Below, piece by piece: positions 16,352 to 35,406 of a DNA stretch of 64,000 nucleotides. The notes beneath the pieces are model-generated. The model did not search any database and was not told the DNA's origin. It worked only from the letters and a program-made list of their open reading frames with translations. A program made the translations under genes and the position numbers. The DNA lies in NCBI RefSeq assembly GCF_041886205.1, contig NZ_CP169029.1. One strand, written 5' to 3'. How positions within the stretch are numbered: position 1 is the stretch's first letter; each line of letters opens with the position of its first letter. The stretch comes from Escherichia coli. GTDB taxonomy: Bacteria; Pseudomonadota; Gammaproteobacteria; Enterobacterales; Enterobacteriaceae.

Positions 16352-17086
16352 TTACCCGTCACCAGTTGTGTCCTTAATACCATACTGTTTTAACCACTGA
16401 CAGGGAGTGACTGAGTAGTATTTTCTGAAACTTAAAATAAAATACGACAGACTGCTATATCCGCACTCTCTAGCGACAATAAAAATGTTAGCATTCCCGC
16501 ACTTCATCAGAGTTATTGCCTTTTTCATACGTACTTCTGTGATTATCCGGCTGAATCCTGCGCCTTCACTGTGCAGTTTTCTTTTAAGCTGACTGGCACT
16601 TATACATAACGCTGATGCAACATCTGACAGATACCATTTCTTTGCCGGCTCTGCGGCAACAATAGCTTCAACACGTAACGAGTAGTTATTCAGCCCACCG
16701 GACAATACAGGCAGCAACTGGTTTTTATCATTAAGATAATCCAGCAGCACAAATAATACTGACTCATAAAGGTTAGTATTTTTCTGTTGTTCCACAAGTG
16801 ACATCAGCGAGTTCAGAAAGGTACCATACGCTTTCTTTCTGAAAAAAGAATTTTTCCTGTCAGTGATGCATAACGCATCGGCATCCCTCAGTCTGATATA
16901 CAGATAGTCGCTGATGATATGACAGGGTATATCAATAAACCTCACACATCCTTCACAGGCATCCGTAATATACTGAATGTCATTTCTTTTAAGAAAGAGA
17001 ATTTCATTCCGGGCAAAATCAAGCTCTTCATTGTAAAATGAAGCACAGAATGGCCTCACTATAATGGCAAAACAATACGGAAACAT
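16352..17086 (-). CDS. AraC-family transcriptional regulator (Rns/CfaD-like, AT-rich gene)
   Basis: 244-aa ORF with a C-terminal AraC-type HTH (...YLSDVASALCISASQLKRKLHSEGAGFSRIITEVRMKKAITLM...GYSSLSYFILSFRKYYSVTPCQW...). Confidence 0.7.
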   Translation of the reverse strand: MFPYCFAIIVRPFCASFYNEELDFARNEILFLKRNDIQYITDACEGCVRFIDIPCHIISDYLYIRLRDADALCITDRKNSFFRKKAYGTFLNSLMSLVEQQKNTNLYESVLFVLLDYLNDKNQLLPVLSGGLNNYSLRVEAIVAAEPAKKWYLSDVASALCISASQLKRKLHSEGAGFSRIITEVRMKKAITLMKCGNANIFIVARECGYSSLSYFILSFRKYYSVTPCQWLKQYGIKDTTGDG

Positions 17087-17241
17087 ACAGTACAGGTGTT
17101 ATTTAGAAATATCCGGTATTTTTCTTATTATAGCTGACAGACTTACTTCCTGACATTATATTAAGAAGTTCGATTTTATTATTAAAGTAACCGGACAAAA
17201 TACAGTCCGGTCACCGTGGTTATACGCGCATATAAATGTTA

Positions 17242-17871
17242 TCAGTCACCTTCATTCAGGCTGACAGTATCCGTAATCACACCATCTTCTGCACCTTTCA
17301 GTGCAAGATTGGCTTCGTAGTATTTCCCTTCGCTCATTAATTTTTGCGCACTGTTAACCTTTTTCTGCGTCTGTTTTAATGGCATCAGCCACTGCGTTTC
17401 TGAAATATCAATTCCGGCGAGATGCAGTACGTCAATTGCTCCTTTTTTGTCACCTTTATCCAGTTTTTTATTGGCCTCATCAATAGCTTTCTGTTTTTCC
17501 GGGGTGACAGTAAAGTCTTCAGACAACATTAAGCTGCTGTTAATAATAATGTAGACATCGCCTTCCTGTGGTGTTTTTTTATCCTTGCGGACAACTGTTT
17601 CCCATGTTTTATCATCAGATTTAAGCAAATCTTCAGCCCGGTTTATCAGCTTATCTGCTGCTCCTGTGTCACCACTGAATAAGGCAAGACGTGCATACTG
17701 CATGTCATCCATAATTTCCATACCACGCTGTTCTGCCTTCAGACTCCTTTCTGATAAAACTGTCTGAGCCTCATTTTTTGTGGATGAAGTGTTTTCTGAA
17801 GTTGCTGAGGCCATTGCGACAGCAGAGGTCAGGGACAGAGCGATTGCTACAGCATTAAAGATATGTTTCAT
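17242..17871 (-). CDS. yfdX: YfdX-family periplasmic protein
   Basis: 209 aa with signal peptide MKHIFNAVAIALSLTSAVAMA and a conserved C-terminal ...SEGKYYEANLALKGAEDGVI... region. Confidence 0.7.
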   Translation of the reverse strand: MKHIFNAVAIALSLTSAVAMASATSENTSSTKNEAQTVLSERSLKAEQRGMEIMDDMQYARLALFSGDTGAADKLINRAEDLLKSDDKTWETVVRKDKKTPQEGDVYIIINSSLMLSEDFTVTPEKQKAIDEANKKLDKGDKKGAIDVLHLAGIDISETQWLMPLKQTQKKVNSAQKLMSEGKYYEANLALKGAEDGVITDTVSLNEGD

Positions 17872-19162: not shown

Positions 19163-20197
19163 TTACTGATAGGAAAATGTAAATGTTGATATTCCGTTAA
19201 CCGTACCCGGATTAATTCCCTCACCAGTATTCACATACTTTACATACAACCGGACTGAGGGTGACGTTTCCGTTCCTGTTGATAACTGCCACTGGTTTTC
19301 ATTTCCCTTTACCGGCGAATCAGGTCCAAACTTCAGGGGCGTACTGTCAGTGTTTTTGTATATTCTCAGCCCGACTCCGGTTGCAGTCGATGCCCCCGTC
19401 AGTGTGAGTATATCGCTTCTGTTGGACGGTGTGGTCGCATCAGTCAGTGTTGCCCATACTGTTACTCCGGCATCACACTGTAATTTCAGTGATGTTGTCC
19501 CGGCGACAACTTCATCACCGGATGATGGCAGTTGTCCGGCAGAAATTGCAGCCAGGCTGACATTGACTGCGGAAGGTGTCAGTAATCTGCACGATGTTAC
19601 TGTGTCATTCAGCGTAAATGGATTCAGGCTGAAATTCACTGTGGTCTGAACACTGCCTGCAGATGAACCGTTATAGGGCCTCATTCTGATACTCCCGATG
19701 CTGGTCTTCTGTACACTGTATCGCGCAGAGGAATTTCTTTTTAAAATTACAGGTGTTACACGAACAGACAGTCCCTGGGTTGATGCAGTATTAGCTCCGA
19801 CACACCATCCGGAAAAGACATTTTCCCATGAGTTTCCGCTCATCGCGGTACCCCTGGAATAATTCGTGTCCCCCATCCATATAAGGAGCCCCACCTCCTC
19901 TGTCAGCCCATAAATACTCTGCCCGTCAAGACTGCCAACCACGGGTAAATCCACTTTCCCGTCCAGCCCGACACAAAATCCCTTAGAAATACGCCAGACA
20001 TTTGCATTCTGATATCCAATGTTGTTACCGGTATTATAGACAAATGGCAGGTTATCCATTGCATGAGTTCTGGAATAAGAGCCTGGAGATGGTCCCACAT
20101 CGTTTTCCGTACTGCCAATAAATGAAACTGCCGCCTGACTGATATTGCAGCAAACCAGAATGAATACAGCCAGAAAGACCTTATAAAAATTTGTCAT
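19163..20197 (-). CDS. fimbrial tip adhesin, F17-G-like two-domain adhesin (344 aa)
   Basis: Signal peptide, then an N-terminal lectin-like domain and a C-terminal pilin domain; last gene of a major pilin/chaperone/usher/adhesin operon. Confidence 0.7.
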
Positions 20198-20198
20198 A

Positions 20199-22736
20199 TT
20201 ATTGCCTCATGCATACTACATGATGGTTTTCCGGAACAGCATTTCCCCTGGCATTTTCTCCGGACGCACTATAGTGAATGACACAACTGTCATTCTGCCC
20301 GCTTCCCCAGACTATCCTGAGCATCCCTTTTTCAGCATCCAGGTCACGTACAAATAACCGGCCTCCCTGAGCAATGTAGCCTGCAGATTTCCCGTCTGCT
20401 GTTAATGCTTCCGCGGCCATCGGCGGCGGCGTTCCGTCCGGCATCTTCACATCAAACAACATGGCTTTCCCCGTTTTTGTTGTGAAGGTCACCATGGTGG
20501 TACTGTTGGCCCGGGGAATAATTTCCCGCTCTGTTGCAGACAGTTCCACATCCGCAGCCAGCGCTGTCGGGTCGATACTGATATAATTCTTTTCGTAAGG
20601 TGTGACATACGGAACAATGCCGTTACCCCAGGGGTCCAGCCGGTTACCCGGCGCATTATTAATCACCGCCCCACCGGCACCATCAGCATGAATAACGGTA
20701 AATGTGTCACCAAGGTCATTACTGGCCGTCACACCAAACGGATGCGCCACTATTGCCCCGGATATACCGGCAGATATCTGACGGTTATGGCGACTGTCAT
20801 TCCCTGCCGTGGCCTGCAGGGTGGCCACCGGTGAACGATAACTGCCATTCACCGCATACCCTGTCGGTCCGTTTTCCTGGGTGTTCAGGGACACACCATA
20901 TGACAACTGATTGTCATCCCCGCTGACACCACTGATACTGCTCTGAATGCTGTTACTGTTTTTATCGCTGACATTCACTGTCGTGGACAGCAACGTCCTT
21001 CCCGTATCTGAAAGTGGCAGGGAAAAACTGAAAAAGAACCGGTTATCATGATGATAATCACCACTCCGTCGGGTCTGGGAAAAGCCAATCTGGTAACTCA
21101 TTTTTTTCCAGACGTTGTTATAACCGGCCTGGTACTCATTGAATGTCCCTGTATGTCCCCAGTAATGATAAGTGGCTCCGGTCAGATACAGGTTTCCCCA
21201 TCCCTCACCAAGACTCTGGTTCACAGTCAGTTGCAACTGATTCCTTGGCCGGTAACCAGTTGCACTCCTGACCGATGAATCATTAATCACATCACGATTC
21301 CTGGTCAGGATGGCATCCCGAAGACTCCAGAAGTCACGGGATGAATAACGGTAAGCCGCCAGCGTCACATTTGTACTGGTTTCCGGTATTCGTGCACTGT
21401 AACCGGCATGCAGGCTGTAGCCGCGATGTGTCGTGTCAGAACCCGGGAAAGTCGTTCTGGCCAGCGTAATATCCGTGGCAACAGCCCCCAGTGGTGTATT
21501 GAATGCCACACCACCCAGCCCTGACAGATAATGAGGTGCGGTACTCATCCCCGTATTCAGGGTGATATCATTTGTCAGCCCGTACTGCAGGGTCCCCTGG
21601 AATACGGTATCGCTGAATGTCCTGTTACCGTAACGATAACGCCCGGCTGCCACCTGCCAGCGACTGAACCCCGGGCGAACCAGTTGTGCAACCGAAGCAA
21701 ACGGCACGATAAAACTCCTGGTCTGTCCGTCTGACTCTGTCACAGTGACTGTCAGGTCACCACCATATCCACTGGGATAAAGGTCACTGATGGAGAAAGG
21801 CCCTGCCGGCACGGTAGTTTCATAAATAATGTTACCGTTCTGCCGGACAGTAACCCTGGCGTTACTTCCGGCCATCCCCCGAACCACAGGGGCATAACCA
21901 CGCAACGAACCCGGCAGCATCCGGTCATCAGAAGCCAGTCTTATTCCCCTGAGGCTGTTACTGTCCATAAGCTCACCTGTGGTGGTGAAATCCCCCAGTG
22001 TCAGTTGCGCACGCAACATGGCTATGTCGTGCTGAAGGTTCGTTTCAATACTCCGGTAACCTTCTGCATGACCGTCACTCCAGCTTTCTGTCCCCCGGTG
22101 ACGAAATGCCCAGCCTCCTGCGTTAAAGCCGGCACGAAGACCAAGATAACTCTGATTATTTTCCATATCGGGCGTCCGGTAACGCCAGTGATTCACGTCA
22201 TAACTGACAAAGGCAGCCGGCACCCCCGTCTGCCACTGAGAAGGTGATATGTATCCCCGTGGACGGGAAACCAGCATGGCCTGCGGAATTTCAACATTCA
22301 GCCGCAGCAGTGACAGGTCAAAACGGATTTTGGCATCAGGTACAACTGCAGAAAATGGCATGCAACGACCATTTCCGGTATCCGGTTCACGGGCAACGGC
22401 CTCGGGTGACACATCCAGAATGGATAACAGTTCCGGCGTCACACACAGAACACTCTCCTCCTGTGAAGAGGACATATCACGGAATGACAATTCCGCATTT
22501 CCTTTCCATTCACCGTTCAGATAAATGTCTGAATAATAATTCCCTGAGGGAACAGGATTCCCGTGCGTGAAACGACGGACATCAATCACACTGCTCCCTG
22601 GCGTGCGGCTCAGAAAACTCGGGTCAAATTCTGCATCCTCTGCCGCCCACAAAGGCGCAGACAGCATATAAAGTCCCGGCAGACAACATAAATAAATGAC
22701 ACGATATTTCAGACCGGATAAAGAATAATGACTCAC
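20199..22736 (-). CDS. fimbrial outer-membrane usher (845 aa)
   Basis: Size and position between the chaperone and adhesin genes; typical usher length. Confidence 0.85.
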
Positions 22737-22749
22737 TTACGGGCCCTTA

Positions 22750-23472
22750 TTATTTCAGAACGGATTCACCTTTCTGGTAACCACCATTATCATTCACCAC
22801 CGTCCATTCCACTTTTCCTGACGGAGAAACCTTCTGCTTCAGTCTGAAAGTGACAGATGAAAACGGTGCGGCCATCCCCCCCTGAGTACTGCTGACTTTC
22901 TGAGCTCCCTGTCCGACACTGACAGTACTGAAGGTAATAAAATAAGGCGTGGGATTACTGGCCTGAAGGGTATCACCGCCTGTAAGCTGCCATGTCACTT
23001 TCTTATATGCATCATCAGGAGAAAAAGGCAGACCATCAGGACGGAAAAAAAACTTAATCCGGGTGCGTACGGCAAACTGAAGGTAATTATATCCCTGTGC
23101 TTTTTCAGATTTTCCGGCAAAAGAAGGTTTGGCCGGAATATCAAGAACATTCAGCCAGAACAGTGATTCCCTGTCTGCCGGAAGTTTTTCTCCCGTATAC
23201 ATAATTCGCATTGTCTGTCCGGAAAGCGGCTCCATCCGGAAAACAGGAGGCGTAATAATAAACGGCACCCTGACAGAGTCAGGAGGGGAAGACGGGTCCC
23301 CTGTATCAAGCCATGCCTGTATCAGGGATGGCGTACTGTCTCCGTTATTCAGCCGGACATTAATACTTTTTTGTTCTGCAGGATAAATAACCCTGGTCCC
23401 CATAATAACCACACTGCCATATGAGGGCAGAGACAAAAGAACGGTAAAAATGAACAGCAGAATATGTTTCAT
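22750..23472 (-). CDS. periplasmic fimbrial chaperone (PapD-like)
   Basis: Start MKHILLFIFTVLLSLPSYG at 23472 with a GGAG RBS; about 240 aa, immediately upstream of the usher. Confidence 0.85.
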   Translation of the reverse strand: MKHILLFIFTVLLSLPSYGSVVIMGTRVIYPAEQKSINVRLNNGDSTPSLIQAWLDTGDPSSPPDSVRVPFIITPPVFRMEPLSGQTMRIMYTGEKLPADRESLFWLNVLDIPAKPSFAGKSEKAQGYNYLQFAVRTRIKFFFRPDGLPFSPDDAYKKVTWQLTGGDTLQASNPTPYFITFSTVSVGQGAQKVSSTQGGMAAPFSSVTFRLKQKVSPSGKVEWTVVNDNGGYQKGESVLK

Positions 23473-23539
23473 ACAGGCTCCGTAAACACGGGGCAAAATG
23501 CCCCGTGAACACTTAAGAAGGCAGGTATTAAGATAAAAA

Positions 23540-24088
23540 TTACTGATAAGCGATGGTGTAATTCACAGTGGCAGAAACGTTGCCGGCGGTGGCCTGACCT
23601 GTTGCATAGTACTGTGCGTTATAACGTAATGTCATTGCGTCATTATTAATAACAACAGGTGTTACTCCCTGATTAGCAGAATCATTACCAAGTAGTATCT
23701 GTGTGGTACCATCAGCATTCAGAAGCTGAATCTGGACTTTTGTTGCGTTACCAGAGCCACTACTTGAAATATTAAGGTTATGGCTATCATAATCAGTGGT
23801 CGCATTAGGCTCAAAATAAGCCTTCACACTTTGAGCTCCTGTAGCGGCAGCAGTATTACACCCACTCAGTGAAATTGTGAAAGGAGTAAGGCCTGCTACC
23901 TTCCCGGTTGAATCTAATGATTTTGTGGAGACAGTTGGTAGTGTAACTGTCAAGGGATCGGTTCCTGTAGTAACAGAACAAGTTTGATCAACAACTTTTC
24001 CATTAAAAGTAATTGTACCGTCATAAGCAAGTGTAGCAGAAGATGACGCAGCCGCCAGTATTCCAAGGATAAATTGAATTTTCCGCAT
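23540..24088 (-). CDS. major fimbrial subunit, F17-A-like pilin (182 aa)
   Basis: MRKIQFILGILAAASSSATLAYDGTITFNGKVVDQTCSV...NYTIAYQ resembles F17 major pilins (resemblance judged from memory, no alignment run). Confidence 0.8.
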   Translation of the reverse strand: MRKIQFILGILAAASSSATLAYDGTITFNGKVVDQTCSVTTGTDPLTVTLPTVSTKSLDSTGKVAGLTPFTISLSGCNTAAATGAQSVKAYFEPNATTDYDSHNLNISSSGSGNATKVQIQLLNADGTTQILLGNDSANQGVTPVVINNDAMTLRYNAQYYATGQATAGNVSATVNYTIAYQ

Positions 24089-24227
24089 AGAATCCTCAGT
24101 GAAACTGATAAGAATATATCATGAAAACAGCAGCAATTAAGAATTTAACTTAATATATTAAGAATAAATTTAATTGCCTATATACAAGATTATCCATAGT
24201 TAAAAAAACTCTCAAAACGTTAAAAAC

Positions 24228-24294
24228 GATCGATATTTCAATTTTGATAGATAAAAGCTATCAATAAACAAATTAACGATCGGTTGTAACGATC
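24228..24294. promoter_or_regulatory. cluster of three GATC (Dam) sites in ACGATCG contexts in the AT-rich region upstream of the fimbrial operon; candidate methylation-dependent switch
   Basis: GATC at 24228, 24278 and 24291, each within ACGATCG[AG]T. Confidence 0.3.
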
Positions 24295-25091
24295 GATAAA
24301 ATATATGAATCAACGTTGCCAAATAAAATAACACATCTGCAAAATAAAACTTTTTCATATTCAATAAATTAATTTCTATTTGTAACTATTACTTTTGATC
24401 ATGTATACGTTTTTAATCATAAATAATGATAATTAGCTTAGTTGATTATATAAAGGCTGTTTAGCCTGTGTTTAAGTTTTCATTTTTGTGAATTAAATCA
24501 CAAACAAGGATTTTCTGCGAATATAAATATATATAAAGTAAGATATATTATGTGCGTGTTTTATGCAGTTTATTTTTATTATCCCTATTTTCTGCAAAAC
24601 AACATATTAATCACTCTATCCATTTCTGACTCAGTTCCTTTTCTGTTCCAGGAAACCATTCATCATATTGCAGGAGAACACTCTCTGCGGGGAAATGGGA
24701 TGCAGAAACTTACAGACTACTGGCAACTTTAAATCTGTTTTTTCCGTTCAAAACGTGGGGGGATATAAGACCATACAGTGTCCAGCCAGGAAAAGTAACA
24801 ATAAAGCGCTACAGCATGGCTTCTTCCCCGGAAGAGTAGAGCGTAAAGAAGCTGTACATCACACCAATAAAGGAAACTGCCTGCACTTTTTCGCATCAGC
24901 CGTATTCTGAACAATCACCAGTGCCGCCCTCAACAGAATATACAGTATGATGATTTGGCTACCATGGCCAGGTTAACCAGTACGTTACGATGACTGTGCT
25001 GAGACATACTTATGGTCATCGTAAGCGTACAGCCTGAACCGTCTGGTCAGAATCTGACGAATTAGACAAAGTGGTGTCCACCAAATAAGTA

Positions 25092-25493
25092 GTGGGAACC
25101 AAAGTATCAGATATGCAGAAAAATGTGACTCCCGCCAGGCGAAAAGGCTGCCCTAATTATCCTCCCGAATTTAAACAGCAGCTCGTTGCTGCCTCCTGTG
25201 ACCCCGGGATATCCATCTCAAAACTTGCTCTTGAAAATGGCATTAACGCCAATCTGTTGTTCAAATGGCGACAACAATGGCGCGAGGGAAAGCTGCTATT
25301 ACCTTCTTCAGAGAGCCCCCAGCTACTTCCTGTGACTCTTGATGCAGTTGCCGAACAGCCAGAATCGCTCGCAGAGGACCCGGAAACCCTCAGTATCAGT
25401 TGTGAGGTAACGTTCCGGCACGGGACGCTCCGCTTCAATGGCAATGTCAGCGAAAAGCTCCTGACTCTGCTGATACAGGAACTGAAGCGATGA
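25092..25493 (+). CDS. tnpA: IS66-family TnpA
   Basis: 133-aa ORF, HTH region ...ISISKLALENGINANLLFKWRQQW... Confidence 0.85.
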   Translation: MGTKVSDMQKNVTPARRKGCPNYPPEFKQQLVAASCDPGISISKLALENGINANLLFKWRQQWREGKLLLPSSESPQLLPVTLDAVAEQPESLAEDPETLSISCEVTFRHGTLRFNGNVSEKLLTLLIQELKR

Positions 25494-25856: not shown

Positions 25857-26443
25857 ATGAAAAATATCCCGCTTCCTGATAATATCGACCAGCTGAAAGC
25901 CCTGTTGCGTCAGCAGCAGGTTGCTGTGGAACAGCTAAATGTTACCATGAAAAAGCAGCAGGCCCGGCTGCGCCAGTACGCCGGACAGGTTGCCGACTAC
26001 GAACAGGAAATCGAACGGCTGAAGGCACAGCTTGATAAGTTGATAAGCTGCGGCGGATGCTGTTCGGGCAGAGTTCAGAGAAAAGCCGCAATAAACTGGA
26101 AAATAAAATCCGCCAGGCAGAGAAGCGGCTGGCTGAGCTGGAAAACCGTCTTGCAGCGGCAAAACGCTGTCTGCAGGACGATGAGCCCACTGTCAGTACG
26201 GTTGAGCAGGCAGAGCCCCCGGTGGCGGTCGCCCCACAGGACCGGCCTGCACGCCGCTCCCGTCGTCAGAAACTGCCGGCAGACCTGCCACGTGAAACCC
26301 GGCGCATCACCCCGACAGTGACTGTCTGCCCGAAATGCGGCGGCGACCTGAAGGTGATGAGTGAAACCGTCTCAGAGCAACTGGAGATAATCCGCAGCGC
26401 CTTTAAGGTCATCGAAACGGTGCGCCCGAAGCTGGCCTGCAGC
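25857..26443 (+). pseudogene. tnpC: IS66-family TnpC, N-terminal part, frameshifted by an 8-bp duplication and truncated
   Basis: MKNIPLPDNIDQLKALL...QLDKL then frame shifts at the duplicated TTGATAAG (26033..26048); continues in the 26057 frame (MLFGQSSEKSRNKL...CPKCGGDL...) and ends at the junction with cdiA. Confidence 0.75.
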
Positions 26444-29400
26444 GGTGTGCTTGTTGGTTCCGCCCTGAATACACAGTCACAGACCCTGACCAACAGTGGT
26501 CTGTTGCAGGGGGAGGCCTCACTCACCGTTAACACACAGAGGCTTGATAATCAGCAGAACGGCACGCTGTACAGTGCTGCAGACCTGACGCTGGATATAC
26601 CGGACATCCGCAACAGCGGGCTTATCACCGGTGATAATGGTTTAACGTTAAACACTGCCTCCCTCAGCAATCCGGGAAAAATCATCGCTGACACGCTGAA
26701 CGTCAGGGCGACCACGCTGGATGGTGATGGTCTGTTGCAGGGCGCCGGTGCACTGGCGCTTGCAGGCGACACCCTCTCACAGGGCCGTAACGGACGCTGG
26801 CTGACGGCGGGCGACCTCTCCCTCCGGGGTAAAACACTGCATACCGCAGGGACCATGCAGGGACAGAATCTCACCGTGCAGGCGGACAACTGGGCGAACA
26901 GTGGCTCCGTGCTGGCAACCGGTAACCTTACTGCTTCGGCAACCGGTCAGTTGACCAGTACCGGCGATATCATGAGCCAGGGTGACACCACGCTGAACGC
27001 AGCCACCACGGACAACCGGGGCAGTCTGCTTTCGGCCGGCACGCTCTCTCTTGATGGAAATTCACTGGATAACAGCGGCACTGTCCAGGGTAACCATGTC
27101 ACGCTTCACCACAGAAGCACTGACAACAGCGGTACGGTCACGGGGCTGAGCGGTCTGACCCTGCACAGCGCGGACGGGCTTACCAACAGTGGCGCGCTGC
27201 TGAGCCAGAACTCGCTGGCGCTGAGCGCAGGAGATGTGACCAACAGCGGCCGGATTCAGGGGCAGAACATCACTCTGGATGCCAGCAGCCTGACCAGCAG
27301 CGGTGCTGTTCAGAGTGCGCTGGATTTGGCTCTGACCCTGAGTGGCGATGTTATTGCTGCCACCGGCAGCAAAATTACCGCCATGGGCGATGCCCGCCTG
27401 ACCGGGAAAGTGCTGGGTAACCAGGGATTAATCAGCGCGAAGACGCTGGAAGTGAATGGTGATTCGCTCAGCAACAGTGGCGAAATCAGTGGTGTTAACA
27501 GCCTGAACGTGACACTCAGTGGTAATCTGCAACAGCACGGTAAAATGCTGACAGGCGGTGCATTAAACGTCAACGCCAGAGACATCAGCAATAGTGGGCA
27601 GCTTCAGGGGGCGGATAACCGAATCACCGCCAGTTCGCTGACCAACTCAGGTCGTGTGCAGGGCGACAGCGGGCTGACTCTTACATTGCTGAATGCCCTG
27701 ACCAACCAGACCAGCGGTGTGCTTCTCAGCCAGAACGTATCAGCGCTTTCCGCACCCGTGCTGACCAATGACGGCACCATTCAGGGCAACGGTAAAACCA
27801 CGCTCAGCGCGGCAACGCAGGCCCACAACAGTGGCAAGATTCTTTCCGGCGGTGAGCTGACGTTCACCACGCCGGACTACAGTGGCAGTGGCTGGCTACA
27901 GGCCACTGACCTGCTGCTGAACGTGGCGAAGCTTGCCGGTAATGGCACTGTGATGGCGGCGAATCAGGCAACGCTCACAGGTAACAGTCTGACCAACCGT
28001 GGCCTGTTCCAGGCCGCACAACTGAACGTCAACACGCAGACCATCACCAACAGCGGCACGCTGCTGGGTAATCAGGGCCTGACAATAAAAGGGAACAGCC
28101 TGAACAACGCCGGCGGGAAGGTATTCAGCGGCGGTGATATGCTTGCTGATATGGTCTCGCTCAGCGGCGCGGGCCAGCTGGTTGCACTCGGTAACCTGAC
28201 GCTGAAGCTCACCCGTGGTTTGACAGCACAGGGCGTTATCGCCGCGAATAAACAACTCTCCGTCAGCAGCCAGGGTGATATTACCAATGGCGCCACATTG
28301 CAGGGCAACGGTATCACGCTGAATGCGGCGGGCAGGCTGACCAACAATGGCCAGTTGACCGCCGGCAACGGCACCACGGCACTGAGCGGCAGCGGGATTG
28401 CGATGAATGCCAGCGGCAGCCTGCAGGCAGGCGGGGACGTCAGTCTGACCAGCCGGGGGGATATCACTCTCGACGGTTTTACCGGCACGACGGGTAGTCT
28501 GATGTTAACGGCCGCCGGGTCAGTCATTAACGCCGCACTGTTGTATGCGGGCAATAACCTCTCGCTGTTTGCCAGCACCATCCGGAACCATCACGGCGAT
28601 ATGCTGGCGGGTGACAGCCTGGTGATGCAGAAAGATGTCAGTGGTGCCGCGAATGCTGAAGTGATTAATACCTCCGGGAATATCGAAACCACCCGCGGTG
28701 ATATCACCATCAGAACCGGACATTTACTGAATCAGCGGGAGGGTATAAATGAGACAAAATCATACATTCCGGTTGAGAATGTCGCAGTACCTGATGGTGC
28801 AAATTCTGTTTCAGTCAGAGTGGGCGATTTAGGTGAAGATGGATGGGGATATTATGTGAAGTCCTGGAGCGGTACTGCCGGTGGTGGTTTTGAGGCATGG
28901 GCCGTTCCGACTGAAAAGGGAGCCACCCGGAAATTTCTGACTGGCACAACACGCGTCGATGTTGGTGCAACAGGGGGGGATGCCAGAATTTCGGCCGGGA
29001 ATAATCTGCTGATTGACGCGGACAAACTGGATAATACGGGAAGTCATCTTCTTGCCAGCGAGTTTGTCAGCCTGTCGGGTTCACAACTGAATAATCAGTC
29101 CTTCTTTGGCTATACACAGGATGAATACAATGTGTATCGCTATTACGGCAAACTGGCCATGATCCCCAACGACGGGCATCTGCAGTATGGAGATGCTTCT
29201 GCCGATGATCGCGTTACCTTTACTCTCTCCGGAGCTCCGGAATATGTCACCAGAGACACCGGTCAGGCTCTGAGAGCCGTGATTCAGGCAGGCAAAAATG
29301 TCACTGCCGTTTTTTCCAGTGATATCAGTAATACATCCACAACCTCAAATGCAGGACGGATCACAAATACCCTTGCGGCACCTGAAATTAACACGCCGGC

Positions 29401-29553
29401 AGAGAAAAATATCAGCCCGGGAATGGCTCAACTGGCGCCGGATGGCACAGAGACGCTGACCGTCACGGCCCCGGACTGGACTGACACCATTACCCGTCTG
29501 ACGATCGGCAGTGGTACGGACCTGGCTTCCGGCATCGTGGTGGGGAACTATCC
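26444..29553 (+). pseudogene. cdiA: cdiA internal segment (filamentous haemagglutinin-type repeat region), 5'-truncated and fused in frame to the tnpC remnant
   Basis: Long Gly/Asn/Thr/Ser-rich repeat region (...LTNSGLLQGEASLTVNTQRLDNQ...); no cdiB or CdiA secretion domain upstream; interrupted at 29553 by IS186. Confidence 0.8.
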
Positions 29554-30892
29554 CATAAGCGCTAACTTAAGGGTTGTGGTATTACGCCTGATATGATTTA
29601 ACGTGCCGATGAATTACTCTCACGATAACTGGTCAGCAATTCTGGCCCATATTGGTAAGCCCGAAGAACTGGATACTTCGGCACGTAATGCCGGGGCTCT
29701 AACCCGCCGCCGCGAAATTCGTGATGCTGCAACTCTGCTACGTCTGGGGCTGGCTTACGGCCCCGGGGGGATGTCATTACGTGAAGTCACTGCATGGGCT
29801 CAGCTCCATGACGTTGCAACATTATCTGACGTGGCTCTCCTGAAGCGGCTGCGGAATGCCGCCGACTGGTTTGGCATACTTGCCGCACAAACACTTGCTG
29901 TACGCGCCGCAGTTACGGGTTGTACAAGCGGAAAGAGATTGCGTCTTGTCGATGGAACAGCAATCAGTGCGCCCGGGGGCGGCAGCGCTGAATGGCGACT
30001 ACATATGGGATATGATCCTCATACCTGTCAGTTCACTGATTTTGAGCTAACCGACAGCAGAGACGCTGAACGGCTGGACCGATTTGCGCAAACGGCAGAC
30101 GAGATACGCATTGCTGACCGGGGATTCGGTTCGCGTCCCGAATGTATCCGCTCACTTGCTTTTGGAGAAGCTGATTATATCGTCCGGGTTCACTGGCGAG
30201 GATTGCGCTGGTTAACTGCAGAAGGAATGCGCTTTGACATGATGGGTTTTCTGCGCGGGCTGGATTGCGGTAAGAACGGTGAAACCACTGTAATGATAGG
30301 CAATTCAGGTAATAAAAAAGCCGGAGCTCCCTTTCCGGCACGTCTCATTGCCGTATCACTTCCTCCCGAAAAAGCATTAATCAGTAAAACCCGACTGCTC
30401 AGCGAGAATCGTCGAAAAGGACGAGTAGTTCAGGCGGAAACGCTGGAAGCAGCGGGCCATGTGCTATTGCTAACATCATTACCGGAAGATGAATATTCAG
30501 CAGAGCAAGTGGCTGATTGTTACCGTCTGCGATGGCAAATTGAACTGGCTTTTAAGCGGCTCAAAAGTTTGCTGCACCTGGATGCTTTGCGTGCAAAGGA
30601 ACCTGAACTCGCGAAAGCGTGGATATTTGCTAATCTACTCGCCGCATTTTTAATTGACGACATAATCCAGCCATCGCTGGATTTCCCCCCCAGAAGTGCC
30701 GGATCCGAAAAGAAGAACTAACTCGTTGTGGAGAATAACAAAAATGGTCATCTGGAGCTTACAGGTGGCCATTCGTGGGACAGTATCCCTGACAGCCTAC
30801 AAAACGCAATTGAAGAACGCGAGGCATCGTCTTAACGAGGCACCGAGGCGTCGCATTCTTCAGATGGTTCAACCCTTAAGTTAGCGCTTATG
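29554..30892 (+). mobile_element. IS186 (IS4 family), 1339 bp, with a 10-bp target-site duplication GGAACTATCC
   Basis: Terminal inverted repeats CATAAGCGCTAACTTAAGGGTTG (29554) and CAACCCTTAAGTTAGCGCTTATG (ending 30892); GGAACTATCC at 29544-29553 and 30893-30902; the cdiA frame is restored across the insertion. Confidence 0.9.
29609..30721 (+). CDS. insL: IS186 transposase
   Basis: 370-aa product MNYSHDNWSAILAHIGKPEELDTSARNAG... from the ATG at 29609. Confidence 0.9.
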   Translation: MNYSHDNWSAILAHIGKPEELDTSARNAGALTRRREIRDAATLLRLGLAYGPGGMSLREVTAWAQLHDVATLSDVALLKRLRNAADWFGILAAQTLAVRAAVTGCTSGKRLRLVDGTAISAPGGGSAEWRLHMGYDPHTCQFTDFELTDSRDAERLDRFAQTADEIRIADRGFGSRPECIRSLAFGEADYIVRVHWRGLRWLTAEGMRFDMMGFLRGLDCGKNGETTVMIGNSGNKKAGAPFPARLIAVSLPPEKALISKTRLLSENRRKGRVVQAETLEAAGHVLLLTSLPEDEYSAEQVADCYRLRWQIELAFKRLKSLLHLDALRAKEPELAKAWIFANLLAAFLIDDIIQPSLDFPPRSAGSEKKN

Positions 30893-30902
30893 GGAACTAT
30901 CC

Positions 30903-33900
30903 CCTGCCTTCCGGTAACAATGGTTATTTTGTCCCGTCCACGGACCCGGACAGTCCGTATCTGATTACGGTGAATCCGAAACTGGATGGTCTCGGAAAGG
31001 TGGACAGCAGTCTGTTTGCCGGACTGTATGACCTGCTCAGGATGCACCCCGGGCAGGCACCACGTGAAACAGACCCGGCGTATACTGATGATAAACAATT
31101 CCCGGGCTCATCGTATTTTCTTGACCGGCTCGGGCTGAAACCGGAAAAAGATTATCGCTTCCTGGGGGATGCCGCTTTTGATACCCGCTATGTATCGAAC
31201 TATATGCTGAACCAGATCGGGGGGCGCTATATCAACGGGGTTGGTTCAGACACCGACCAGATGCGCTACCTGATGGATAACGCTGCCCGTGCACAGAAGG
31301 CGCTCGGTCTGAAGTTTGGTGTGGCACTGACAGCAGACCAGGTGGCGGCTCTCGACCAAAGTATTCTGTGGTATAAAGCCGTCACGATAAAGGGTCAGAC
31401 GGTGATGGTGCCGGAAGTGTATCTGTCACCGAAAGATGTGACGCTGCAGAACGGCAGTATTATCAGCGGTCAGAATGTGCACCTGGCAGGAGGGAATGTC
31501 ACTAACAGTGGCAGTACCCTGATGGCGCAGAATGATCTCACCATCGACAGCGCTGACAGTCTGGGTAACCTTGAGTCCGGGCTTATAAATGCCGGTGGCG
31601 CTCTCGGACTGAAAGCGATGGGCGATATCAACAATATCAGTGCCACGATTACCGGTAAGACTGTCCGGCTGGAGAGTCTCGCCGGCAATGTCAATAATCT
31701 CACCCGGTACTCACACTGGCAGCTTGATGCACCGGAAGACAGCCTCGCCCTGAAACACACTTATACGGGAAGCATTGCCTCTGTCAGTGCCATGGATAGT
31801 CTGGACATCCGGGCAGATAAAAACATTTCGGTCACAGGGGCAGAAATCAGCGCCGGAGGTCGCGCAGCACTTATTGCCGGCAATGATCTCAGTCTGAATG
31901 CCATTGACAGGGTAAGCAGCAGTCGCCATGCAAACAGTGAATCTCACCAGCGCAGTGCAGAACTTACGACCATTACTGCCGGCGACAGTGTGATGCTGAG
32001 TGCAGGCCGGGATGTGAGCAGTCAGGGTGCAGGTATCGCAGCGGAAGACAACATCACTGTCCGGGCCGGGCGCGACGTTAATCTGCTGGCGGAAGAGTCC
32101 GTGACCGGCAGCAGTTCATACTCGAAAAAGAAAACGGTCATTGATGAAACCGTTCGCCAGCAGGGAACGGAAATCGCCAGCGGTGGTGACACCACCATTA
32201 CTGCAGGACGGGATATCACCGCTGTTGCGTCATCCGTTACCGCAACCGGCAATATCAGTGTGAATGCCGGTCGTGATGTCGCCCTGACCACGGCGACAGA
32301 AAGTGACTATCACTATCTGGAAACGAAGAAAAAAAGCGGAGGTTTTCTCAGTAAGAAAACCACCCACACCATCAGTGAGAACAGTGCCACCCGTGAAGCA
32401 GGCGCCCTGCTGTCGGGGAACCGCGTGACCGTTAACGCCGGTGATAACCTGACAGTACAGGGTTCGGATGTGGTGGCTGACCGGGATGTGTCACTGGCGG
32501 CGGGTAACCATGTTGATGTTCTTGCTGCCACCAATACAGATACGTCCTGGCGCTTTAAGGAAACGAAGAAATCCGGTCTGATGGGTACCGGCGGTATTGG
32601 TTTCACCATTGGCAGCAGTAAGACAACGCACGACCGCCGCGAGGCCGGGACAACGCAGAGTCAGAGTGCCAGCACCATCGGCTCCACTGCCGGTAATGTC
32701 AGTATTACCGCGGGCAAACAGGCTCATATCAGCGGTTCGGATGTGATTGCGAACCGGGATATCCGCATTACCGGTGACAGTGTGGTGGTTGACCCGGGGC
32801 ATGACCGTCGTACTGTGGACGAAAAATTTGAGCAGAAGAAAAGCGGGCTGACGGTTGCCCTTTCCGGCACAGTGGGCAGTGCCATCAATAATGCGGTTAC
32901 CAGTGCACAGGAGACGAAGGAGAGCAGTGACAGCCGTCTGAAAGCCCTGCAGACCACAAAGACAGCGCTGTCTGGTGTGCAGGCCGGACAGGCTGCGGCA
33001 ATGGCCACCGCAACCGGTGACCCGAATGCGACGGGAGTCAGCCTGTCGCTCACCACCCAGAAATCGAAATCACAACAACATTCTGAAAGTGACACAGTAT
33101 CCGGCAGTACGCTGAATGCCGGGAATAATCTGTCTGTTGTCGCAACCGGCAAAAACAGGGGCGATAACCGCGGAGATATTGTGATTGCAGGAAGCCAGCT
33201 TAAGGCCGGTGGTAACACAAGCCTGGATGCCGCGAATGATATTCTGTTGAGTGGCGCTGCAAATACACAAAAAACAACGGGCAGGAACAGCAGCAGTGGC
33301 GGTGGCGTGGGTGTCAGTATCGGTGCCGGTGGTAACGGTGCCGGTATCAGTGTCTTTGCCAGCGTTAATGCGGCAAAAGGCAGCGAGAAAGGTAACGGTA
33401 CTGAGTGGACTGAAACCACAACAGACAGCGGTAAAACCGTCACCATCAACAGTGGTCGGGATACGGTACTGAACGGTGCTCAGGTCAACGGCAACAGGAT
33501 TATCGCCGATGTGGGCCACGACCTGCTGATAAGCAGCCAGCAGGACACCAGTAAGTACGACAGTAAACAGACCAGCGTGGCTGCCGGCGGCAGTTTTACC
33601 TTTGGCTCCATGACCGGCTCAGGTTACATCGCTGCCTCCCGGGATAAGATGAAGAGCCGCTTTGATTCCGTTGCTGAACAAACCGGAATGTTTGCCGGTG
33701 ACGGCGGCTTCGACATTACAGTGGGCAGACATACCCAACTGGATGGTGCGGTGATTGCCTCCACTGCCACACCGGATAAAAACCACCTGGATACCGGAAC
33801 GCTGGGGTTCAGTGACCTTCACAACGAAGCGGATTATAAAGTCAGTCACAGTGGAATCAGTCTGAGCGGTGGTGGCAGCTTCGGGGATAAATTTCAGGGT

Positions 33901-35406
33901 AACATGCCGGGTGGCATGATATCCGCCGGAGGTCACAGCGGACATGCGGAAGGAACGACTCAGGCCGCAGTGGCAGAAGGCACTATCACCATCCGGGACA
34001 GGGACAATCAGAAGCAGAATCTGGCGAACCTGAGCCGTGACCCTGCGCACGCTAATGACAGTATCAGCCCGATATTTGACAAGGAGAAAGAGCAGAGGCG
34101 TCTGCAGACAGTGGGGCTTATCAGTGACATAGGCAGTCAGGTGGCGGATATTGCGCGTACACAGGGAGAACTGAATGCGTTGAAGGCCGCGAAGGAAGCA
34201 ACCGGCGAAACACTTCCTGCTAATGCAACAGAGAAACAACGTCAGGAATATCTTGCGAAACTGCGTGACACGCAGGCTTACAGGAATGAAATGGCGAAGT
34301 ATGGCACTGGTAGTGAAATTCAGCGGGGTATCCAGGTCGCGATGGCAGCGCTTCAGGGCCTGGCGGGCGGCAATATGGCAGGCGCGCTGGCAGGTGCTTC
34401 AGCGCCGGAGCTGGCGAACATCATCGGTCATCACGCGGGTATTGATGACAATACAGCTGCAAAAGCCATTGCCCATGCCATTCTCGGTGGTGTGACAGCA
34501 GCCCTTCAGGGCAACAGTGCGGCAGCAGGCGCAATTGGCGCGGGTACTGGCGAAGTGATCGCGTCAGCCATTGCGAAAAGCCTCTACCCGGACGTAGATC
34601 CGTCGAAACTGACAGAAGAGCAGAAGCAAACTGTAAGCACGCTGGCAACGCTGTCAGCGGGTATGGCCGGCGGTATTGCCAGTGGCGATGTGGCTGGCGC
34701 GGCTGCTGGGGCTGGTGCCGGGAAGAACGTTGTTGAGAATAATTTACTTGGCGGTAGTGAAGATGCTCAGGCTGCGTGGATACGCCAGCATGGTATCGAC
34801 ATGGCGACATGTGCAGAAAACCCTTCCGGTGCCGCCTGCCAGAAAGCAATGAATGAGAGGGATGCTGTAGGGCTGGCTCTGGCAACAGGTACAGTGGCAC
34901 TACTCCCCGGTAGTGCTCAGGCTATGTGGGGACTGGGAGCAAGTGCGAATGCTGGTATCAGTTATCTGGCTGATGGTACTGTAGATCCGGCAAACGCAGC
35001 CATTGCAGGCTGGGTGAATGTGTTCAGCATGGGTAATGGCCTGGCGGGGACTGTGGGCTGGAATGCGGCAGGTGGTGCGCTGGGTAACTGGATCGACAAC
35101 AAAGATCCTCTGTCTGGTGCAATTTCAAATGGTATCGGTTCTGCTGCCGGGTATGGTATCGGTAAAGGTGTTACTTGGGGGACAGATAAGATTACGAATG
35201 CTGTAGGAAAATGGGTGACAAATGGCTGGGATCCTAAGTACGATCCAACATGGATAAAATATGCTGAAGTAAATCGTAACGATATCATTCGAGAAGGCAT
35301 GAAACCGAGCAATGTTCCTGGAACTGCTGGAGATATTGGCGGTTCTATAGGATCTGAGCTAGGTGGAAAAGTAACAGATAAAGTATCTGAGGAACTCAAG
35401 AAATGA
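30903..35406 (+). pseudogene. cdiA: cdiA 3' portion: repeat region, pretoxin region, VENN motif (34732..34743) and a Gly-rich C-terminal toxin domain (CdiA-CT)
   Basis: In-frame continuation of 26444..29553 once IS186 and one duplicate are removed; ...[15 protein letters not shown]... precedes a Gly/Ala-rich CT resembling membrane-acting CdiA-CTs. Confidence 0.8.

Follow-up and report, generated by a model that had tools for sequence, protein, structure and literature searches.

What decides whether an Escherichia coli cell makes F17 fimbriae, a main colonization factor of the E. coli responsible for diarrhea and septicemia in calves and lambs, is the question raised by a 64,000-nucleotide stretch of E. 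coli DNA (contig NZ_CP169029.1; the whole stretch is here called the window). Its minus strand carries the f17A-D-C-G operon, in the order pilin-chaperone-usher-adhesin, and three closely set GATC sites, potential targets of Dam methylation, lie upstream of the first gene. A first-pass annotation, made from the letters alone, had described a four-gene F17-like operon with an AT-rich upstream region and had suggested from the GATC cluster that the operon may be phase-variable in the manner of Pap pili. The operon is a true F17 operon, and not just similar to one: Pfam domains identify all four products, the adhesin with its F17-G type N-acetylglucosamine (GlcNAc) lectin domain included, RefSeq annotates f17a and f17g at 100% identity together with the chaperone and usher genes, and over the 6 kb surrounding the locus the sequence matches the chromosome of the bovine strain E. 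coli ZYB39 with 100% identity. As for phase variation, the GATC cluster as a mark of Dam-dependent switching gains support from OxyR half-sites and from a match to the gtr and Ucl regulatory regions, whereas a Pap-like mechanism with Lrp does not. The reading favored here is that F17 fimbriae are probably switched ON and OFF, heritably, by an OxyR/Dam epigenetic switch of the type controlling gtr, the O-antigen glucosylation operon of phage P22 and Salmonella.

The GATC cluster and its predicted OxyR half-sites

The three sites (GATC1, 24291-24294; GATC2, 24278-24281; GATC3, 24228-24231) each stand in an ACGATCG context on the plus strand, 140-206 nt upstream of the f17A ATG. Their positions, contexts and 50-63 bp spacing had been noted in the first pass and all hold, with 13 bp now added for the distal pair (spacings of 13, 50 and 63 bp in all); so does the AT-richness, the 723 bp of intergenic DNA upstream of f17A having 29% G+C. 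The raw number of GATC sites in those 723 bp is unremarkable (4 against 1.9 expected, P=0.11). Three of them inside 63 bp occur in 1.2% of dinucleotide shuffles, and three CGATCG, with 0.034 expected, in none of 20,000. A further GATC, at 24397, was rejected as a fourth switch site, being outside a CGATCG context, outside any half-site and lost from the most divergent F17 promoter. A separate observation is that the F17 coding region (19163-24088) is strongly depleted of GATC, with 2 sites in 4.9 kb versus 2.75 per kb window-wide and 3 in 67 bp of the regulatory region.

Read in the orientation of the operon, the cluster is part of a module of three predicted OxyR half-sites, A, B and C (Table 1), consisting in turn of TTTTATC, GATC, GTTACAACC, GATC, GTTAATTTGTTTATTG, ATAGCTTTTATCTAT, CAAAATTGAAATATC, GATC and GTTTTTAACGTTTTGAGAG, that is, of the layout GATC-N9-GATC, N16, ATAGCTTTTATCTAT, N15, GATC. 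The central half-site, B, is a perfect match to the consensus for an OxyR dimer half-site, ATAGnTnnnAnCTAT, and the sole match in the window, where 0.04 would be expected. The centers of A and B are 32 bp apart and those of B and C 31 bp, a spacing that fits the one used by tetramers of reduced OxyR (about 32 bp). Half-site A has two GATCs, B has none and C has one, so that methylatable sites are present in both outer half-sites and absent from the central one. Where A and C depart from the OxyR consensus (ATAG to ATCG, CTAT to CGAT), the changes are exactly those by which a GATC arises, which argues for selection on methylatability, and the ACGATC context itself follows from the GATCs forming the ATCG and CGAT arms of two degenerate OxyR half-sites. 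Degeneracy of this extent has precedent: the validated half-sites of the Salmonella opvAB operon, where paired half-sites are 32 bp apart, score 10, 8, 10 and 7 of 10 (PMC4856963), so the F17 scores of 8, 10 and 7 are in the functional range.

Among 11 F17 promoters of 79-100% identity, both chromosomal and plasmid-borne, all 12 bases of the three GATCs and the ATAG and CTAT of half-site B are invariant and the bases between them vary. Variable positions number 5 of 33 within the consensus versus 19 of 46 in the rest of the module (Fisher P=0.014). Half-site B has a mismatch at a consensus position in four of the 11, reminiscent of the tuning single-nucleotide polymorphisms (SNPs) reported for Ucl fimbriae. 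More telling than conservation within F17 is an alignment across families (F17, an F17 variant, three Ucl alleles, Uca of Proteus mirabilis and P22 gtr), in which mean identity is 64% and the invariant columns are essentially GATC1, GATC2, ATAG-T, CTAT and GATC3.

The Ucl fimbriae, which promote gut carriage of human extraintestinal pathogenic E. coli, are encoded by a homologous operon, and their promoter has been studied experimentally. The module upstream of uclA was seen in an editing oligonucleotide of the supplement to that study (PMC9236248) and confirmed in the genomic sequence of strain NU14, where it has the form GATC-N9-GATC, N15, ATAGGTGCAATCTAT, N15, GATC. The authors (Hancock et al. 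2022, PMC9236248) mapped the transcription start site and placed an OxyR site between -82 and -66. This is half-site B of the module, the only one of the three half-sites that was recognized there. OxyR shifts the Pucl fragment in an electrophoretic mobility shift assay, deletion of oxyR drastically reduces UclA and overproduction of OxyR raises Pucl activity in a dose-dependent manner. When the G of ATAG is replaced by T (SNP at -78; the F17 equivalent is the G at 24258), OxyR binding is weakened and yet expression increases, the fimbriated cells rising from 12% to 79% (PMC9236248). The fimbriated fractions are evidence of population heterogeneity and an indirect pointer to ON/OFF expression. 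By the published start site the ucl GATCs begin at -113, -100 and -51, to be compared with -110, -97 and -46 in gtr. Ucl and F17 share the 2+0+1 distribution of GATCs and a half-site C that ends at the -35 element (a putative one in F17), and differ in module spacers (15/15 nt in Ucl versus 16/15 nt in F17) and in the 5′ leader, that of ucl being about 50 nt shorter. The upstream region of the P. mirabilis Uca operon, whose usher and chaperone are 62% and 61% identical to F17C and F17D, carries the module as well. The GATC-N9-GATC pair of half-site A is found again in ucl, uca, OxyR(A) of P22 gtr and agn43, and GATC3 in ucl, uca and gtr.

The homologous promoter of ucl, which has been mapped, also suggests where transcription of f17A would start. 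In ucl, by the published start site, no gap separates half-site C from the -35 TTGAAA; in F17, TTGAGA follows directly on C, the putative -10 GATAAT aligns with GATGAT of ucl (its position 2 being A or G among the F17 variants) and a start near 24182 is predicted. Conservation is no lower at a second promoter-like site, TAGGCA-17-TATATT, from which the start would fall near 24145. Since no single promoter stood out in a sigma-70 scan (5 sites versus 4.6 expected), the assignment rests on the homology with ucl and is uncertain.

How far the module extends beyond these families was gauged by scanning one genome per species for the exact pattern GATC-N9-GATC-N14..17-ATAG-N7-CTAT-N14..17-GATC. At least 120 loci match, where roughly 9 are expected by chance (298 Gb, both strands, 16 spacing combinations, 20 specified bases). 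Among the matches listed, all but one, from a GC-rich genome, are from Enterobacterales or Gilliamella, i.e. at least 119 loci in Dam-positive taxa. Nearly all of those listed have 15/15 spacers and share the further consensus tTGATCGtt..ccGATCgAtaa..tgATAG.t...a.CTATca..ATcGATCGgTA.aa.c.aT. An nhmmer profile was built from 80 of these modules, all from other species, none of them from F17, Ucl, Uca or gtr loci. Though such a profile inherently rewards the 20 pattern bases, it matches the window at E below 3 in one place only, 24213-24298 (E=4e-14), and it recovers ucl (E=6e-15), P22 gtr (E=1e-8), uca (E=3e-6) and, partially, agn43 (E=1e-4).

Table 1. Features of the f17 locus, with positions in the window
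Feature	Position	Strand	Basis and remarks
Whole three-half-site OxyR/GATC module	24213..24298	minus	nhmmer profile match, E=4e-14, 49 bits
Predicted OxyR half-site A, ATCGTTACAACCGAT	24279..24293	minus	8/10 consensus; arms carry GATC1 and GATC2, 13 bp apart
Predicted OxyR half-site B, ATAGCTTTTATCTAT	24247..24261	minus	10/10; without GATC; homologous to the -82..-66 OxyR site of Pucl
Predicted OxyR half-site C, ATCGTTTTTAACGTT	24216..24230	minus	7/10; carries GATC3; CGTT in place of the fourth GATC of gtr
Candidate core promoter	24189..24215	minus	-35 TTGAGA (24210-24215) abutting half-site C, 15-nt spacer, -10 GATAAT (24189-24194); homology to mapped ucl promoter
Alternative promoter-like site, TAGGCA-17-TATATT	24152..24180	minus	Consensus scan; -10 A2 and T6 conserved in 11/11 variants
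f17A, major pilin, 182 aa	23540..24088	minus	ATG at 24088; Pfam FimA/Fimbrial
f17D, periplasmic chaperone	22750..23472	minus	Pfam PapD_N/PapD_C
f17C, outer-membrane usher	20199..22667	minus	Pfam Usher/PapC
f17G, two-domain adhesin, 344 aa	19163..20197	minus	Pfam Fim-adh_lectin (F17-AG lectin domain, E=1e-117) and Fimbrial domain

The proposed switch and its rivals

As envisaged, an OxyR tetramer would bind either A and B or B and C. The GATCs it covered would remain unmethylated, those left exposed would be methylated by Dam and so keep OxyR off the alternative site, and each state would be inherited until replication offered a chance to switch. One occupancy would activate the f17 promoter (ON) and the other would not (OFF), probably irrespective of whether OxyR is oxidized, as in agn43, gtr and opvAB. 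Both dam and oxyR are core E. coli genes. That OxyR binds the f17 module is very likely, because half-site B is perfect and because of the Ucl experiments; that a Dam-dependent bistability follows, for which the architecture and the apparent selection for GATC are the arguments, is reasonably likely.

Several points weigh against this proposal. Half-site C has a single GATC and a weak 3′ arm (7/10), and therefore the reciprocal lock may be asymmetric or leaky. The ucl-homologous promoter combines a variable position 2 of its -10 with a short 15-nt spacer, and the second promoter-like site is 37 nt downstream; were the latter the real promoter, the module would be some 37 bp farther from RNA polymerase than in ucl or gtr. 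The 11 F17 promoters are closely related and not independent samples, so their conservation is supportive rather than independent evidence. In addition, the Ucl study read its data without Dam, and reported no ON/OFF switching of colonies; its main text makes no mention of GATC, methylation or phase variation and invokes unidentified cofactors (PMC9236248).

That last circumstance leads to one rival, in which OxyR is a conventional LysR-type activator of graded f17 expression and the GATCs are fully methylated or irrelevant. The Ucl data have, after all, been accounted for by OxyR with cofactors, and the dose-dependent response of Pucl to OxyR is in keeping with it (PMC9236248). It is nevertheless unlikely, as the bases that create the GATCs of A and C do not vary among F17, Ucl, Uca, gtr and over 100 further modules, all from Dam-positive taxa, and as the ucl SNP, with weaker binding, more expression and a larger fimbriated fraction, is explained by a two-state switch and not by a simple activator. 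A LysR-type regulator other than OxyR could in principle read the same architecture together with Dam, since T-N11-A palindromes are common to these proteins, and HdfR is reported to act in this way at the Salmonella std fimbrial operon, which has upstream GATCs (PMC6735912). A 10/10 match to the OxyR-specific ATAGnTnnnAnCTAT in half-site B, and the effects of OxyR on the Ucl fragment and of its deletion on UclA, make such a substitution distinctly improbable.

The Pap-like switch of the first-pass annotation, in which Lrp and a PapI-like co-factor would move between GATC sites and Dam would lock the state, has in its favor that all three GATCs are in the ACGATC context and that the AT-rich region is upstream of a chaperone-usher operon. 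ACGATC is the core recognized by PapI-Lrp in pap. The context is, however, also what the OxyR half-site arm GATCGtT produces, and is shared with the modules of gtr and of integrative and conjugative elements (ICEs), which are not fimbrial. The reading fails because the spacings are not the roughly 102 bp of pap and because papI and papB are lacking: no PapI or PapB family member was found by Pfam among 8 small open reading frames (ORFs) around the operon or in the RefSeq annotation of the locus, in agreement with what the first pass had seen. Given also the perfect OxyR palindrome between the sites and the OxyR-bound, OxyR-dependent promoter of the homologous Ucl operon, a Pap-like switch is hardly to be expected here. 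Least of all is to be said for a cluster without regulatory role, arisen by chance or as a small terminator-like hairpin (CGATCG-N7-CGATCG and then a T-rich run), to which the faintest of probabilities attaches. The raw GATC count would permit it and 24277-24295 (minus strand) was picked up in a search for terminators. Its stem, though, has no more than 6 bp and coincides with the palindromic half-site A, and there is no functional gene upstream to terminate, just a potE fragment and IS66; chance is countered by the shuffles described above and by conservation of the module across F17, Ucl, Uca and more than 100 species.

Surroundings of the locus and other carriers of the module

Beyond the 723 bp of intergenic DNA there is a potE pseudogene fragment (24812-25037), followed by IS66. 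In the F17 copies compared (loci L003 and L128-L133 besides the window), the fragment accompanies the upstream region of chromosomal ones, and rarD is annotated near plasmid-borne and variant ones. The F17 block, its regulatory region included, seems to be mobile as one unit between insertion sequence (IS) elements, those bordering it in the window being IS66, IS100 and IS2. The operon is carried by about 36-42 of 5,426 complete E. coli genomes and by 22 conjugative plasmids. Directly past the IS66 genes is a very large gene for a hemagglutinin-repeat protein, annotated as frameshifted (25857-34057; ORFs of 1179, 372 and 1478 aa). On the other side, 1.3-2.8 kb downstream of f17G and on the same strand, are genes for an AraC-family helix-turn-helix (HTH) protein of 197 aa and a YfdX-family protein (16352-17871). 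In 23900-25100 Rfam detects no known RNA element, its single match (IS102 RNA, E=0.31) being sub-threshold.

Two observations concern the promoter region. A perfect CRP-type palindrome, TGTGA-N6-TCACA, at 24487-24502 is the only one in the window (0.14 expected), with both arms invariant in all 11 F17 promoters. It is followed on the operon strand, after about 13 bp, by a 10/12 promoter-like site, TAAACA-18-TATAAT (24445-24474). Possibly, there is a second promoter far upstream, perhaps dependent on cAMP-CRP, whose transcript would read through the OxyR/GATC module. Separately, five of the 11 promoter variants read GGATGATCT at 24186-24196 (columns ~433-443 of the alignment), with an extra GATC overlapping the putative -10, where the copy in the window reads GGATAATCT and lacks a GATC. 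F17 alleles thus differ in how many methylatable sites they have near the promoter.

Genes downstream of the module are diverse. Among the matches listed they encode DUF4755 proteins, small HTH_3 regulators (in Morganellaceae), fimbrial subunits, Acs, LuxR-type regulators, a Flp pilin, and proteins of about 90 aa and of 144 aa without a Pfam match; chaperone-usher genes are downstream on the same strand at 11 of the listed loci. In the chromosome of enterotoxigenic E. coli strain 120899 (L002, 6005-6071) the module is 79.5% identical to that of F17 over 73 bp and is followed by a conserved tail, GGTACAAGCAATTTTACTAAAG. Modules of this type, also in L005, L006, L014, L017, L020, L032, L045, L053, L057, L084 and L086, precede by about 80-110 bp a gene for a cysteine-rich membrane protein of about 90 aa, and as that of L002 adjoins relaxase and integrase genes, it may represent phase-variable cargo of an integrative element. 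In Morganellaceae (Proteus mirabilis and Moellerella, L070 7177-7243 and L025 528-593; also L035, L036, L041, L067, L068 and L098) the module precedes a small HTH_3 (Cro/C1-type) gene, and in L070 and L025 at least, usher and chaperone genes of a fimbrial operon are found farther downstream, so that the cassette may control fimbriae there through the leading regulator gene. A further variant, in Pectobacterium, Brenneria and Samsonia (L010, L012, L016, L052, L109 and L119), is about 245 bp upstream of a 653-aa ORF, one copy of which (L010) has by Pfam the AMP-binding and ACAS_N domains of acetyl-CoA synthetase, a housekeeping metabolic gene and an unexpected target for OxyR and GATC. A methylome paper on Photorhabdus does not mention OxyR.

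The OxyR/Dam mechanism as such is known from agn43, gtr and opvAB. Neither its link to F17, Ucl and Uca nor the 2+0+1 layout of GATCs appears to have been reported in the literature searched, in which no paper joined F17 fimbriae with OxyR and GATC or linked Ucl with Dam or GATC, and nothing relevant was found on F17 fimbriae and phase variation. A more ambitious view, for and against which the balance is about even, is that F17, Ucl and Uca would be the first chaperone-usher fimbriae whose phase variation is due to OxyR and Dam, that their module would be one copy of a portable switch cassette upstream of more than 100 unrelated gene sets in Enterobacterales and Gilliamella, and that Dam would be the cofactor missing in the Ucl paradox. 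The targets of such a cassette would comprise other chaperone-usher operons, ICE cargo genes, DUF4755 proteins, small HTH regulators and acs. Were the switch to operate as proposed, F17 would be made by a subpopulation only, which bears on F17-based diagnostics and vaccines and on failures of expression in vitro. There would also be a simple and testable explanation for the Ucl paradox, in which a SNP makes OxyR bind less well and yet leads to higher expression and a changed fimbriated fraction, and the list of OxyR/Dam switches would extend to chaperone-usher fimbriae and to many uncharacterized loci that can be screened in public single-molecule real-time (SMRT) and nanopore methylomes.

Comparison with known Dam-dependent switches

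In the pap family, too, a chaperone-usher operon is preceded by GATCs for Dam in ACGATC context, and the outcome expected for both is ON/OFF expression. The pap family is distinguished by Lrp with PapI, the 102-bp spacing, six Lrp sites and divergent papI and papB, none of which was found at F17. In agn43 (flu) of E. coli there are likewise three GATCs, which include an identical GATC-N9-GATC pair in CGATCG context; all three are within one OxyR site, unlike those of F17, and the match to the family profile is only partial. The agn43 OxyR site is at or downstream of the promoter, and OxyR acts there purely as a repressor, with no choice between alternative sites.

In opvAB, OxyR half-sites of mixed quality contain GATCs, as do the predicted ones of F17, and the promoter-proximal half-site is immediately upstream of the -35, which in F17 is a putative one; opvAB methylation patterns are reciprocal in the two states (PMC4856963). 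The differences are that opvAB has four half-sites, with four single GATCs 46, 19 and 46 nt apart, and that the sites used in its ON state, among them the one next to the -35, are not adjacent.

The nearest parallel is with gtr, whose three half-sites, OxyR(A), (B) and (C), have the spacing of reduced OxyR. There, binding at AB turns expression ON and binding at BC turns it OFF, OxyR no longer binds once Dam has methylated the sites while OxyR in turn shields the GATCs beneath it, and ON and OFF cells have reciprocal methylation patterns (Broadbent et al. 2010, PMC2909390). The P22 regulatory region reads GATC-N9-GATC, N16, ATAGATAAAAACTAT, N16, GATC-N9-GATC; it is too diverged for BLAST, by which the 116-nt F17 module gave short chance matches only in a phage collection. 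Like F17, gtr has half-sites at centers about 32 bp apart, with GATC-N9-GATC in A, a perfect and GATC-free B, and GATC in C, and the upstream GATCs of both are near -110 and -97 if the ucl-homologous start site is used for F17. The differences are these. C has two GATCs in gtr and one in F17, with CGTT in place of the fourth; the spacer between B and C measures 16 nt in F17, one base fewer than the 17 of gtr; and C overlaps the -35 in gtr, whereas it abuts the -35 in ucl and, by homology, in F17. The genes downstream also differ, being a glycosyltransferase operon in the one case and, in the other, chaperone-usher fimbriae.

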